A stretch of DNA of 64,000 nt from Clostridia bacterium (GTDB lineage: Bacteria > Bacillota > Clostridia > Christensenellales > DTU072). Shown piece by piece: positions 55,546 through 60,180 of this stretch. Every line of letters begins with the position of its first letter. Within the stretch, counting starts at the first letter, position 1. The stretch is taken from positions 1,905-65,904 of the forward strand of contig JAQVQU010000001.1 of the NCBI GenBank assembly GCA_028701415.1, given 5' to 3'. The translations under genes were made by a program, and so were the position numbers. Below the pieces are notes generated by a model. That model was not told the DNA's origin, searched no databases, and was given only the letters and a program-made list of their open reading frames with translations.

Positions 55546-56025
55546 ATGGCATTAATTTTATTAAAGATTAATCCTTTTAGCACTGATGAACTGATAGCAG
55601 ATGCTTTTTCTTTGTATAATAAGCTTTTTAACCCCGAATATATTTTTAGCTCTTCAGTAAATATTTTTAGAAAAGATGGAAAACCGAGTGTAGAAGGGTT
55701 TCAAGGATATATAAGTGTCTCTCATTCAGATAACATATATGCCTGTATAATAGACAATAATCCAGTGGGAATTGATGTGGAAAAACACAGAGATCTTGAC
55801 TTTTCAAAAATTTCTAAAAGATTTTTTGGACAAATCATAAACAATAAATTAGATTTTTATGAACATTGGTGTAAAGCTGAGTCTATAGCAAAAAGTAGAA
55901 ATACACCTCTTATTAACGCTTTGAAAATGGATCTAGAGAGAGAAGCTAAAGTTATGGATATTTTTGAAAATATGACAATGTGTTATTATAGTTGTTCAAC
56001 TACTATATTATATTTTCAACAATAA
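55546..56025 (+). CDS. 4'-phosphopantetheinyl transferase superfamily protein (short form)
   Basis: 159 aa. PPTase motifs (…GKPSV…ISVSHSD…, …VGIDVEK…, …WCKAESIAK…). Confidence 0.7.
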   Translation: MALILLKINPFSTDELIADAFSLYNKLFNPEYIFSSSVNIFRKDGKPSVEGFQGYISVSHSDNIYACIIDNNPVGIDVEKHRDLDFSKISKRFFGQIINNKLDFYEHWCKAESIAKSRNTPLINALKMDLEREAKVMDIFENMTMCYYSCSTTILYFQQ

Positions 56026-56047: not shown

Positions 56048-56076
56048 TTGACTTTTTTCCAAGTGATATGTATAAT
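56048..56076 (+). promoter_or_regulatory. promoter of the lipase-like lipoprotein gene
   Basis: TTGACT (56048-56053), 17-nt spacer, TATAAT (56071-56076). Confidence 0.55.
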
Positions 56077-56108
56077 TGAGAACATATTTGGTTATTACGT
56101 GTGGTGAA

Positions 56109-57881
56109 ATGCGCAAGTTATTATTTATTATTTTATTTTTTATTTTTTTATTTTCAACTGCATTTTTTTCTGGATGTAAACCCACTGATGAAGCAGAGAC
56201 TTTTGATTTAGACATAGATTTGGCCTCTATTCAAAAACCTGTTGATCTTCCTGAGTATTCTTTGGAGATAGAATGGTTTGATTCTAATGGAGACACGACC
56301 TCTTTTGTGAGAAATAAGCCAGTTATGATCCTTTTTAATGGGTATTCTGAATTTAGTCGAAAAGAAAGTTTAACCCTTCCTGAAGATATTTATGGTCCAT
56401 CTAGCCCTGTTGTTAGTAGTGGTATCTCAGCAAATTTAAAAAGAGATTTAAGTTATTATTGGAGAAAACTAGTCCCTCAGTTTAATGTAGGGGTTTTTCA
56501 TTATGAAAATTTTGCGGACGATGCTACAAACATACTGAATTCAAAAATTTACCAGTCCTCGGCATGTTCGTACAAAACTGATGGAGATGTTATTTCTTCC
56601 GTAGAATTTAACTTAACTGAGGCGTTTTTCTCTGCCTGGAAAAAAGTAATCGATCAAAATTTACTTACAGGTAGTGATGGTATGAGCATATTAGAGGTAA
56701 GATTTATCGGAAACTCTGTTGGCGCAAATTTAGCGATTTCTTGTGCTGACTACATTTTTGCCGCATATGAGCAAAATCTAATACCTTCATTTTATGTTCC
56801 TAATAGACTTACCTTGACAAATCCTTGGTTTTCAAATGATGTGGATTCTTTAACTACCGTGGATTTTCGAAAAGATGTAAGTATAAATTCTGCTTTAAAG
56901 TATAATGAGCAAAGAATCCGTGAGCTAGCTCAAAAAGGGGTTGTATTTGAGATAATTGAGGGAGACCCCTACTTTTATAGTAGTTATTCAAATAAATATG
57001 ATGGATGTACTGAATTGATTTTTGGGGAGAATACTAAACTTGTTTGGGAAGATGGGGAAGACACAGATTTATATGATTCAATAAAGAGCAATAGTGCGTA
57101 CTTGACTTTTACGGAAACTTTTAGTACACAGTATTCAGATTCATACAAAAAATATGACAGAGCGATTTTAGATTGGTATCTATATTCAGCCGGGGGAAGC
57201 GATAGTAGCAGTATTACGACCCTTAGAGCAGGGTTTAAACCCGTTTATGATTCTTGGGGGCATCCTTCGGTAACGCACAATAGTTACACTGAAAGCACTA
57301 CAAATGGATATTCAATGAAATATGGAATTAGTGCCTGGACTCCAACCACATATATAAGAGCTGTAAGGGGAGTAGAATACACTATGAAAATTTACAATTC
57401 CGCAGGTTCAACTGATAATGTAATGACAAAATTTCAGTCTGAAGCTAGACAGATGTCAAATATGACTATGGTAAATGGGTTTTTTATATGTGGGTATATA
57501 TATCAATCGGATATTTCTGGTTCATTTGTTGATCTTCGTCCTGGCAAGGGACTTTCCAGCTATACTTTTGGTATAGTAGCAACTCCCGACGAAGAGTATT
57601 CGACAACCGAACAGATATTTACAGTTAAGACAGAGGAAGATGGATTCTATAAGTGTATGCTCAATGAAGATCTATATGCCTGCAACATCAGGATTAATTT
57701 GGTTGCGCCTTCCCCAACTCATCAATTCTATCCTGAAGAAGAGATAAAAACTGGAAACGTATGGGAACTTTCGGATGTAAACTCAATAGGAAGAGATGGT
57801 ATTTCAGCGACTATGTATGGAACTGAAAATAGTAATTTTTATATAATGATTAGAAATTGTGGGTTTTTTATACAAGAATAA
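56109..57881 (+). CDS. putative lipoprotein with a lipase/esterase-like N-terminal domain
   Basis: ATG at 56109 (MRKLLFIILFFIFLFSTAFFSGC, lipobox-like FSGC). GNSVG fits the GxSxG nucleophile elbow. The C-terminal ~200 aa has no motif I recognise. Confidence 0.55.
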   Translation: MRKLLFIILFFIFLFSTAFFSGCKPTDEAETFDLDIDLASIQKPVDLPEYSLEIEWFDSNGDTTSFVRNKPVMILFNGYSEFSRKESLTLPEDIYGPSSPVVSSGISANLKRDLSYYWRKLVPQFNVGVFHYENFADDATNILNSKIYQSSACSYKTDGDVISSVEFNLTEAFFSAWKKVIDQNLLTGSDGMSILEVRFIGNSVGANLAISCADYIFAAYEQNLIPSFYVPNRLTLTNPWFSNDVDSLTTVDFRKDVSINSALKYNEQRIRELAQKGVVFEIIEGDPYFYSSYSNKYDGCTELIFGENTKLVWEDGEDTDLYDSIKSNSAYLTFTETFSTQYSDSYKKYDRAILDWYLYSAGGSDSSSITTLRAGFKPVYDSWGHPSVTHNSYTESTTNGYSMKYGISAWTPTTYIRAVRGVEYTMKIYNSAGSTDNVMTKFQSEARQMSNMTMVNGFFICGYIYQSDISGSFVDLRPGKGLSSYTFGIVATPDEEYSTTEQIFTVKTEEDGFYKCMLNEDLYACNIRINLVAPSPTHQFYPEEEIKTGNVWELSDVNSIGRDGISATMYGTENSNFYIMIRNCGFFIQE

Positions 57882-58006
57882 TCATTATTTCTTTTGAATT
57901 CAATTATCATTTAATTGATTAATTAGTTGATATAATAAATCTTTTGGATTCTATCATTTTTAATAATCAAGACCTATTTACTATATTTTTAGTTTTTTTA
58001 GAGATA

Positions 58007-58035
58007 TTGAAACCTCCCATTTTAATTGTTATAAT
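58007..58035 (+). promoter_or_regulatory. near-consensus sigma-A promoter of the structured RNA locus
   Basis: TTGAAA (58007-58012), 17-nt spacer, TATAAT (58030-58035) preceded by TGt (extended -10). Confidence 0.7.
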
Positions 58036-58041
58036 AATGAT

Positions 58042-58263
58042 GGTCTAGGAAACGTTGGGTTAAGCTGAATTGAAACCCCAATTAATACACAGGGCATACG
58101 AAGTCCTTCCTTTCAGTTATGTCAAGCCTCCCGAGGGTACTCGATGTCAGGGGAAGACAGAGTGTATGGAATAGTTAGCCCACCTGCTTCGTGCGGGTTT
58201 GCGTATTGCTTGATTTGACGAGTCTTAGCTAGGAGCATATTGGAAAATATGCTCCTTCTTTTT
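58042..58263 (+). ncRNA. unclassified GC-rich structured RNA (~220 nt): a stand-alone sRNA or a terminator-type riboswitch leader
   Basis: Bounded by the promoter above and an intrinsic terminator. 47% G+C (90/190 nt, 58041-58230) against 16% in 57901-58000. Multiple nested complementary segments (see findings). No SD-led ORF. Confidence 0.6.
58231..58263 (+). terminator. rho-independent terminator ending the structured RNA
   Basis: AGGAGCATAT (58231-58240), loop TGGAAA, ATATGCTCCT (58247-58256), then TCTTTTT. Confidence 0.85.
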
Positions 58264-58357
58264 ATACAGTCCCCTTTTTTATTTGATATAATTCTTACAA
58301 TAATGTAAACTAACTATGGAAAAAATACAAATTTTTAATAATTCAAGGAGGATTACA

Positions 58358-59053
58358 ATGGAGTACACAAATGAAGTGGAAAAAATGTTTTGCGTAACAA
58401 AAGGATGCAACCACGGACCGTCTCCAATACCTGAAGAGGGAAAATGGATTCAGGCTAAGGAAATTAAAGATATTAGTGGATTAACTCATGGAGTTGGGTG
58501 GTGCGCACCTCAACAAGGAGCTTGTAAATTAACACTAAATATAAAAAATGGTGTGATTGAAGAAGCTTTAGTAGAAACCCTCGGATGCACTGGAATGACT
58601 CACTCTGCGGCAATGGCTGCCGAAATTCTTACAGGTAAGACTATCCTTGAAGCTTTGAATACAGATTTAGTTTGTGATGCAATTAATACCGCGATGAGGG
58701 AACTATTTTTACAAATAGTTTATGGAAGAAGTCAATCAGCTTTTTCTGAAGGAGGTCTTCATATCGGCGCTGGGCTTGAAGATCTAGGCAAAGGACTAAG
58801 AAGTCAAGTTGCCACAATGTACTCTACTTCGAAAAAGGGAGTTAGATATCTTGAGATGGCAGAAGGGTATGTTACAAGACTTGGATTAGATAGTAATAAT
58901 GAAGTAATTGGATATGAGTTTGTTAAACTAGGGCCAATGATGGAACAAATCACTGTCAAAGGAATATCGCCAGAAGTAGCATTAAAGAGTTGTACTGGTA
59001 AATATGGGCGATTTGATGAAGCAACAACAATTATAAATCCAAGAGTCCAATAA
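58358..59053 (+). CDS. NifU/IscU-N-like domain protein with a C-terminal extension (function unknown)
   Basis: The ATG at 58358 follows AAGGAGG; the ORF-track start at 58316 lacks an SD. IscU-like pattern (…GWCAPQQGACKLTLNIKNGVIEEALVETLGCTGMTHSAAMAAEILTGKTILEAL…). Confidence 0.6.
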   Translation: MEYTNEVEKMFCVTKGCNHGPSPIPEEGKWIQAKEIKDISGLTHGVGWCAPQQGACKLTLNIKNGVIEEALVETLGCTGMTHSAAMAAEILTGKTILEALNTDLVCDAINTAMRELFLQIVYGRSQSAFSEGGLHIGAGLEDLGKGLRSQVATMYSTSKKGVRYLEMAEGYVTRLGLDSNNEVIGYEFVKLGPMMEQITVKGISPEVALKSCTGKYGRFDEATTIINPRVQ

Positions 59054-59065
59054 GGGAGGTTTTCT

Positions 59066-60067
59066 ATGAGTATAAATTTTGAAGGATTTGAAAGAAGAAT
59101 TGCAAAAATATCTGCTTTTTTAGAAGGAGCAGGAATTTCTGGGTTTGAGGACGCTAGAAATATATGCTTGCAAAAAGGTATTGATGTAGAAAAAATAGTT
59201 AAGGGCATACAACCAATCGCATTTGAAAATGCAGTTTGGGCATATACTGTTGGCTGTGCTTATGCAATTAAAAAGGGGATAAATAAGGCTTCTGTTGCTG
59301 CTGAGGCAATTGGACAAGCCCTCCAGGCTTTTTGCATTCCTGGCTCTGTAGCCGATGTAAGGAAAGTCGGACTTGGTCATGGGAATTTAGCTGCTATGCT
59401 ATTAAGAGAAGAAACACAATGTTTTGCGTTTGTGGCTGGACATGAAAGTTTTGCTGCCGCAGAAGGCGCTATAGGGATCGCAAAGTCAGCAAATAAGGTC
59501 CGTAAAAATCCACTTAGAGTAATCCTCAATGGTCTTGGTAAAGATGCTGCTTATATAATTAGCCGAATAAACGGGTTTACTTATGTTCATACAAAATATG
59601 ATCAATGCACAGACGAACTAACAATAGTAAGGGAACTCCCTTTTAGTGAAGGTGAAAAATCTAAGGTTAAATGTTATGGGGCTGACGATGTGAACGAAGG
59701 TGTAGCAATTATGATAAAAGAAGGTGCTGATGTAGGAATTACAGGAAATAGTACAAATCCTACAAGATTTCAACATCCAGTTAGTGGAACCTATAAAAAA
59801 TGGGCTATCGAAAATGGAAAGAAATATTTTTCAGTTGCAAGTGGTGGGGGTACTGGCAGGACTTTACACCCTGACAATATGGCGGCTGGTCCAGCTTCCT
59901 ATGGATTGACCGATACAATGGGAAGAATGCATGGAGACGCTCAGTTTGCGGGATCCAGTTCTGTTCCTGCTCACGTTGAGATGATGGGCTTAATAGGGAT
60001 GGGAAATAATCCTATGGTTGGAGCCACAGTAGCGGTCGCGGTTGCTGTCGAAGAGCATTCAAAATAA
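59066..60067 (+). CDS. GGGtGRT-family protein (function unknown)
   Basis: 333 aa. Contains the eponymous motif SGGGTGRTLHP (GGGTGRT at 59843-59863). SD GGGAGG. Confidence 0.75.
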   Translation: MSINFEGFERRIAKISAFLEGAGISGFEDARNICLQKGIDVEKIVKGIQPIAFENAVWAYTVGCAYAIKKGINKASVAAEAIGQALQAFCIPGSVADVRKVGLGHGNLAAMLLREETQCFAFVAGHESFAAAEGAIGIAKSANKVRKNPLRVILNGLGKDAAYIISRINGFTYVHTKYDQCTDELTIVRELPFSEGEKSKVKCYGADDVNEGVAIMIKEGADVGITGNSTNPTRFQHPVSGTYKKWAIENGKKYFSVASGGGTGRTLHPDNMAAGPASYGLTDTMGRMHGDAQFAGSSSVPAHVEMMGLIGMGNNPMVGATVAVAVAVEEHSK

Positions 60068-60104: not shown

Positions 60105-60180
60105 GCTAATGTAGCACAGTCGGTAGTGCGGTTCACTCGTAATGAACAGGTCGCTGGTTCGATTCCAGTCATTAGCTCCA
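60105..60180 (+). tRNA. tRNA-Thr (anticodon CGU), CCA encoded
   Basis: Folded by hand. Acceptor GCTAATG/CATTAGC. D arm GCAC-AGTCGGTA-GTGC. Anticodon arm GTTCA-CTCGTAA-TGAAC. Variable loop AGGTC. T arm GCTGG-TTCGATT-CCAGT. Discriminator T followed by CCA. 76 nt. Confidence 0.93.

Follow-up and report, generated by a model that had tools for sequence, protein, structure and literature searches.

6S RNA, a well-known regulator of bacterial RNA polymerase, is the product of a stand-alone small RNA (sRNA) gene that is abundantly expressed and normally present once, sometimes twice, per genome. In Escherichia coli, a longer ssrS-ygfA transcript is processed to 6S RNA, whose gene is linked to ygfA. 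Ms1, an RNA of ~300 nt which is restricted to Actinobacteria, binds the core enzyme of RNA polymerase. For the 6S RNAs of E. coli and Bacillus subtilis, a structural rearrangement driven by a short product RNA (pRNA) has been described, which in E. coli joins the 3′ bubble strand and the 3′ strand of the downstream duplex in a hairpin after pRNA synthesis has unwound that duplex (PMC8876501). Ms1 is described as a 6S-like, rod-shaped sRNA interacting with RNA polymerase (PMC9130861). Here, we describe a GC-rich element in a stretch of 64,000 nt from a Clostridia bacterium (contig JAQVQU010000001.1; this whole stretch is referred to as the window), whose positions 58041-58229 on the plus strand very probably encode a divergent 6S RNA (SsrS) with its own extended -10 promoter and its own intrinsic terminator. 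The element is almost certainly neither a new class of RNA nor a riboswitch.

The candidate RNA resembles the 6S-1 RNA of Firmicutes (bsrA of B. subtilis) in its length of ~190 nt, its organization as an independent transcription unit and its rod architecture, and it shares the G/C pairs beside the bubble and the CCCACCUG motif on the 3′ side with the curated Rfam 6S family (RF00013). In sequence it is so divergent, however, that the window copy and most of its relatives remain below the gathering score of 46.4 bits. As reported for B. subtilis 6S-1 (PMC8876501), the free RNA is already predicted to form a hairpin on the 3′ bubble strand, whereas the use of the 3′ strand of the adjacent helix for this hairpin sets the family apart from B. 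subtilis and corresponds to the situation in E. coli. On the basis of the predicted structures, the family would appear to combine a preformed hairpin of the B. subtilis type with an E. coli-type use of the adjacent helix. The likeness to E. coli ssrS further comprises the presumed overall mimicry of an open promoter and the competition of an ACCUGC/GCGGGU with an AAACCC/GGGUUU pairing, with a release hairpin of 6 bp in the window family compared to 9 bp in E. coli. In contrast to ssrS, the RNA has a terminator of its own and is mostly found downstream of a lineage-specific gene encoding a protein of 580-630 aa without Pfam match. With Ms1, it has the rod shape of a 6S-like sRNA in common, but it lacks any Rfam or sequence link to this RNA.

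Results

A self-contained structured RNA had been proposed at this position from inspection of the letters alone (the original prediction), and all strings quoted in its support were found where it had placed them. The SigA/sigma-70-type promoter (58007-58035, plus strand) is composed of the -35 hexamer TTGAAA (58007-58012), a 17-nt spacer and the extended -10 element TGTTATAAT (58027-58035); with 11 of 12 consensus matches and the TG extension, it was the top-scoring promoter-like site between 57000 and 59500 in the promoter scan. The RNA body of ~189 nt (58041-58229, plus strand), whose 5′ end is placed from the promoter position and the start of conservation, is delimited by the score of the covariance model R1 described below, the series of homologues, covariation and the Rfam 6S matches. 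It is followed by an intrinsic terminator (58231-58263, plus strand), in which AGGAGCATAT (58231-58240) pairs with ATATGCTCCT (58247-58256) ahead of TCTTTTT; the predicted 10-bp hairpin was recovered with a stem of 10-11 bp, the terminator scan counting 11 pairs. The proposed GC island proved exact to the nucleotide, with 90 G+C in 190 nt (47%) at 58041-58230 and 16 in the 100 nt upstream (57901-58000), at a G+C content of 35% for the whole window. The plus strand of the element folds with a minimum free energy (MFE) of -72.7 kcal/mol (z = -2.66 versus dinucleotide shuffles), its ends pairing in a long stem, and R1 scores 231.9 bits on the plus strand versus 16.8 bits on the minus strand. Within the element, the mechanical list of open reading frames (ORFs) contains only one of 34 aa (58070-58174, plus strand) and one of 38 aa on the minus strand. 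As judged from the sequence, the flagged element is a genuine gene for a small RNA with a transcription unit of its own, and its self-contained nature is upheld by fold and covariation in 30 distinct homologues, which nearly throughout possess their own promoter and terminator.

Homologues were collected by several routes. Homologues of the NifU-like protein encoded downstream are abundant in metagenome-assembled genomes (MAGs) of Clostridia and Christensenellaceae; this synteny route yielded the RNA only upstream of the gene of a 90%-identical relative (L001), and no element was present upstream of homologues with 84% (L003/L005) or 81% (L006) identity. Metagenome contigs were also searched for a strict DNA pattern (AGCCCACCTGC-N3-9-GCGGGTTTG); of the 19 loci obtained, two were real (L017, identical; L025, 96% identical) and 17 were chance matches. 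Over 228 nt, the RNA of L017 (JGI contig Ga0265294_10003189) is 100% identical to that of the window, and by this comparison the window probably derives from the organism of L017 or from one that hardly differs from it. Among named genomes, that of Firmicutes bacterium ADurb.Bin080 (L038, MWEH01000119.1) comes closest, with 96% identity of the RNA, a figure measured on L025, which shares its R1 score and aligned sequence with L038, and 98% identity of the NifU-like protein. Comparison of the window with L025 and L001 shows conservation of the promoter hexamers, the RNA body and the terminator stem, while the flanks, including the DNA farther upstream of the promoter, have diverged; the terminator stem of L001 carries a compensatory A-U to G-C change.

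The covariance model R1 was built from the window copy and these two closest relatives. More divergent homologues were reached via synteny with the 601-aa protein encoded upstream of the RNA, the fetched contigs being searched with R1, which gave matches of 196 bits in L027, 142 in L028, 97 in L029, 50 in L030 and 47 in L032/L033; no R1 match was obtained in L034/L035, whose 601-aa homologue is 31% identical. Moreover, a collection of species-representative genomes was scanned with a degenerate pattern derived from the conserved 3′-bubble block, and 30 of the resulting 54 loci, all from Clostridia MAGs, were confirmed by R1. These include ADurb.Bin080 as the closest (230 bits), an uncultured Christensenellaceae bacterium, several Ca. 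Stercoripulliclostridium species and Christensenella sp. UBA3944. Among the scan hits, one full-length copy was found per contig and per genome, the sole exception being a contig-end fragment in one MAG. None of the pattern matches outside Clostridia (seven from Pseudomonas/Stutzerimonas and ~17 other contigs) was recognised by R1; they were taken as unrelated, and an Rfam scan of three of the Pseudomonas/Stutzerimonas loci returned no 6S at the gathering threshold. The exact match to AGTTMGCCCACCTGY-N3-9-GCGGGT in seven Pseudomonas/Stutzerimonas species (L040, L048, L050, L051, L068, L083 and L084) probably belongs to a conserved part of a different gene.

The link to 6S emerged from the curated Rfam models. 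The scan at the gathering threshold, covering the whole window and 10 related loci, gave no match at the element. A permissive scan of 57950-58400 returned four weak matches, one of them a partial 6S alignment of 11.5 bits, which prompted the reading of the MFE structure as a 6S-like rod. In this alignment, GGG...GCCCACCUG of the bubble flanks and AAGCC...GGGGAAG of the apical part stand in register with the 6S consensus, GCCCACCUG matching its CCCACCUg. For L001, 6S was the sole Rfam match, with 17.6 bits (E = 0.13) over the full length, followed by the likewise full-length matches of L030 (34.6 bits, E = 1e-5) and L032 (43.3 bits, E = 9e-8) in permissive scans. In L081 (UBA3944), finally, the 6S model scores 57.5 bits at 2305-2498 of the minus strand, above its gathering score, and R1 finds its match at the same place (2311-2496, E = 4e-9). 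Along this chain of homologues the 6S scores rise continuously from the window copy to above the threshold, which is thus reached transitively by the family and not by the window copy itself, and 6S is the only Rfam family that matches the homologues consistently and over its full length. The original prediction had dismissed 6S by eye and held that the element fits no known RNA class. Neither statement can be maintained, as the fold has the 6S architecture, L081 exceeds the threshold and the series of homologues grades into curated 6S. Its proviso that a confident Rfam match would render the RNA real but not novel applies by way of L081 and not through the window copy.

The homologues, from ~30 species-level genomes of uncultured Clostridia, share the fold of one unbranched rod. 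From a long closing stem, it leads through an internal loop and a short helix to a large central bubble, beyond which a long terminal arm extends; the consensus structure has 53 pairs in eight collinear helices and zero branch points. Alignment A5 comprises 33 sequences, of which 30 are distinct; across the latter, 92.5% of the 1464 cells are paired and 32 of the 53 pairs show changes on both sides (183 cells); none of 500 shuffles reached any of these measures, and slid controls were 35-48% paired. Values for a smaller alignment of eight sequences were similar (94.3% of cells paired, 22 of 53 pairs changed on both sides, slid controls 35-47%, no shuffle equal). RNAalifold on the window, L025 and L001 returns an unbranched rod with central bubble as well, and compensatory changes in the terminator and the apical hairpin occur already among these three close copies. 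Since A5 was fitted to R1, two independent checks were made. MAFFT and RNAalifold on 16 divergent copies recovered the terminal arm and the 6-bp hairpin of the 3′ bubble strand; the fast-evolving closing stem was not aligned by this approach and hence absent from its prediction, and was therefore examined by folding of single sequences. Here, the MFE structures contained a long end-to-end closing stem in 30 of 30 cases, with a mean of 19 pairs compared to 6 after shuffling of the 3′ 40 nt, and usually also the terminal arm and the 3′-bubble hairpin of the consensus.

Mapped onto the plus strand of the window, the closing stem is formed by 58045-58065 and 58208-58228 in two helices (58045-58050/58223-58228 and 58053-58065/58208-58220) and is at the same time the most variable and the best supported part, with changes on both sides in 18 of its 19 pairs in A5. 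It is followed by the internal loop (58066-58072/58201-58207) and a short P2-like helix beside the bubble, the equivalent of the "downstream duplex" (58073-58080, AAACCCCA, with 58192-58200, UGCGGGUUU). This third helix is highly conserved with little variation (88% paired in A5), and the Rfam 6S model aligns it to its own helix 38-42/145-149. Both strands of the central bubble are unpaired in the consensus, the 5′ strand (58081-58091, AUUAAUACACA, containing ATACAC) being A/U-rich and variable in sequence among homologues, the 3′ strand extending over 58182-58191. The bubble is flanked by AACCC/GGGUU and by a GGGC/GCCC helix (58092-58095/58178-58181), whose pairing is invariant in all sequences, and it thereby shows the 6S feature of a large single-stranded region between conserved G/C-rich helices. 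The GGGC/GCCC helix closes the terminal arm (58092-58181), which is interrupted by internal loops and comprises inner helices in the region of helices 4-8 of A5 (58107-58110/58168-58171, 58114-58123/58156-58164 and 58127-58130/58150-58153) as well as the apical hairpin CGAG-GGUA-CUCG (58132-58143). Members differ in the length of the apical part of the arm, and overall RNA length ranges from 167 to 194 nt. With its body of 189 nt, the window RNA conforms to the largely double-stranded rod of ~180-200 nt, kept by covariation, that is a feature of 6S.

Two of the nested pairings proposed in the original prediction belong to this structure: CGAG/CTCG (58132-58135/58140-58143), the apical hairpin, has compensatory changes at all four pairs, and CCTC/GGGG (58127-58130/58150-58153) at one pair, while its other three never vary. 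The ATACAC/GTGTAT and GGGC/GCCT pairings, the ACGAAG/CTTTCaGT hairpin and the long-range ACGAAG/CTTCGT alternative are all absent from the conserved structure.

On the 3′ bubble strand, a hairpin of 6 bp (ACCUGC-UUCGU-GCGGGU; 58182-58187/58193-58198, plus strand) can form by using the 3′ strand of the P2-like helix. Alone it amounts to -8.3 kcal/mol, and its pairs have a probability of 0.9-0.96 in the free RNA; the sequence of the stem is invariant, and that of the loop differs among homologues, as does its length (4-7 nt). The ACCUGC/GCGGGU hairpin and the AAACCC/GGGUUU helix are mutually exclusive and hence in thermodynamic competition, in agreement with the rearrangement described for the 6S RNAs of E. 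coli and B. subtilis (PMC8876501). The capacity to form this hairpin is a further 6S feature and, by analogy, could play a role in pRNA-induced refolding.

With regard to the transcription unit, nearly every homologue carries a TGnTATAAT promoter directly upstream at the same distance (TATACT in 4 of 29) and a hairpin with T-run directly downstream, the hairpins differing from one another. In the window, the genes downstream of the RNA encode NifU_N-like (58358-59053) and GGGtGRT (59066-60067) proteins. A conserved position upstream of a NifU gene on the same strand, as would characterize a cis-acting leader, is not found: only 7 of 31 loci have the NifU-like gene downstream in the same orientation, in L036/L029 it is located on the opposite strand, and in L030 an NAD synthase gene takes its place. 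The second extended -10 element noted in the original prediction (TGATATAAT, 58284-58292) is present between the terminator and the NifU-like gene; with TATACA and an 18-nt spacer, it makes up a separate promoter (58263-58292, plus strand; 10 of 12 matches), and the NifU-like/GGGtGRT pair is probably transcribed independently of the RNA. Owing to its own promoter and terminator and the non-conserved linkage to NifU, the RNA qualifies as a stand-alone sRNA rather than a NifU/GGGtGRT leader, a possibility raised in the original prediction, and the downstream operon is very probably not controlled in cis by it.

The gene upstream of the RNA (56076-57881, plus strand) encodes the 601-aa protein, which has no Pfam domain. 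Its homologues (28-99% identity) are confined to Clostridia MAGs and occur within the fetched locus in ~20 of 31 loci; in 18 of these, they precede the RNA in the same orientation, sometimes with RimK-like and Sm_multidrug_ex genes in between. By eye, its N-terminus, a hydrophobic segment followed by ...FFSGC..., looks like a candidate lipoprotein signal.

Several further features of the window were recorded. An ORF of 159 aa (55546-56025, plus strand) has no Pfam match in the window; the gene in the corresponding position of L030 (1732-2193), located after a GH77 4-alpha-glucanotransferase gene, matches PF01648 (ACPS, 4′-phosphopantetheinyl transferase), a family to which the window ORF may belong as a divergent representative. 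Directly downstream of the GGGtGRT gene lies a tRNA-Thr gene (anticodon CGT; 60105-60180, plus strand), which likewise follows the GGGtGRT gene in L027 (8024-8096) and L028 (7974-8046). In the gathering-threshold Rfam scan of the window, this tRNA (60105-60177) and a tetrahydrofolate (THF) riboswitch aptamer (RF01831; 30489-30582, minus strand; full-length match, 78.6 bits, E = 2e-16) were the only matches.

Discussion

By analogy to the described 6S RNAs, the rod with its open bubble would mimic an open promoter and fill the active-site cleft of the RNA polymerase holoenzyme containing the housekeeping sigma factor, and SigA-dependent transcription would consequently be damped when the RNA accumulates, e.g., in stationary phase. 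Upon nutrient upshift, the polymerase could template a short pRNA on the 5′ bubble strand (~58081-58091, into AAACCCC at 58073-58079), of which 58081-58091 would provide the template region for the pRNA start if the mechanism known from other 6S RNAs applies (PMC8876501). The resulting pRNA-6S hybrid would open the AAACCC/GGGUUU helix, and the GCGGGU strand set free in this way could then become locked in the ACCUGC/GCGGGU hairpin of the 3′ bubble strand, leading to release of the polymerase.

The RNA ends in a terminator and precedes the NifU-like gene by 129 nt in the same orientation, which could also suggest a terminator-type riboswitch or leader of the NifU-like/GGGtGRT operon, with an aptamer and the terminator at 58231-58263 as expression platform, and the same arrangement indeed recurs in L001, L027/L063, L028/L053, L069 and L077. 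Nevertheless, this explanation is already largely refuted by the synteny across the 31 loci and by the NifU homologues of L003/L005 and L006, which lack the element upstream. Moreover, the terminator stem lies outside the conserved fold, leaving no anti-terminator alternative, the RNA is sealed by its closing stem directly ahead of the terminator, a separate promoter precedes the NifU-like gene, and an unbranched rod lacks the junction or pocket typical of aptamers; altogether, we consider a riboswitch very unlikely. Even more remote, to a degree that it hardly needs to be entertained, is a chance GC-rich patch or a small protein gene. The two overlapping ORFs of 34 and 38 aa could be taken to speak for the latter, but substitutions in the helices are compensatory, indels among homologues fall into loops and have lengths not divisible by three, no reading frame is conserved in the alignment, a Shine-Dalgarno sequence is missing, R1 clearly distinguishes the strands, and promoter and terminator precisely bracket the folded RNA. 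A small protein, an RNA of the antisense strand, a T-box or riboswitch and a tracrRNA-like RNA were each rejected, as neither an Rfam match nor the context supported them and the minus strand stays at 16.8 bits compared to 231.9 bits for the plus strand.

The reading put forward in the original prediction, a new class of stand-alone structured sRNA which is unrelated to 6S and only shares its rod shape, draws on the scores of the window copy and most homologues below the 6S gathering score and on the confinement of the family to a group of uncultured Clostridia. It appears quite improbable, as homologues found with the window model reach up to 57.5 bits on the Rfam 6S model over their full length and in the same register, without any other family matching consistently. 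Furthermore, length, architecture, the G/C helices flanking the bubble, the CCCACCUG motif, the competing 3′-bubble hairpin and the single confirmed copy per genome among the scan hits all fit 6S. There is also a slim chance that the RNA represents a functionally diverged 6S-like paralogue of a Christensenellaceae/Stercoripulliclostridium-like clade, perhaps acting on another sigma holoenzyme or with a release mechanism combining the B. subtilis and E. coli types; its recurrent location directly downstream of the lineage-specific gene for a protein of 580-630 aa might then have a functional basis instead of being due to an inherited order of genes.

Several points weigh against the assignment as a divergent 6S RNA. 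The 11.5-bit alignment of the window copy to RF00013 (E = 5.3) covers model positions 38-149 and is below gathering, and of the 17 family members contained in a gathering-threshold scan of 20 of the 54 loci, only L081 passes; membership of the window copy in 6S therefore rests on transitive homology and architecture. The helices flanking the bubble and the 3′-bubble hairpin are invariant and as such beyond confirmation by covariation, and for the loci of the genome scan the 3′-bubble block was required by the search pattern itself. In addition, the thermodynamic ensemble of the free RNA favours the hairpin over the P2-like helix, which makes the exact ground-state bubble uncertain. The copy count refers to scan hits rather than whole genomes and leaves room for a second, more canonical 6S RNA. 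Finally, we infer binding of the RNA polymerase holoenzyme and pRNA templating by the window RNA from the analogy to studied 6S RNAs.

From a biological perspective, a divergent 6S RNA in these Clostridia is nothing unexpected, and the main value of the finding lies in the sensitivity gap of the Rfam 6S model it uncovers. For an entire group of uncultured Clostridia from gut and digester habitats, the 6S RNA escapes the curated model, and genome annotations of these organisms consequently lack a 6S gene. In this context, alignment A5 could serve as seed for a better 6S model.

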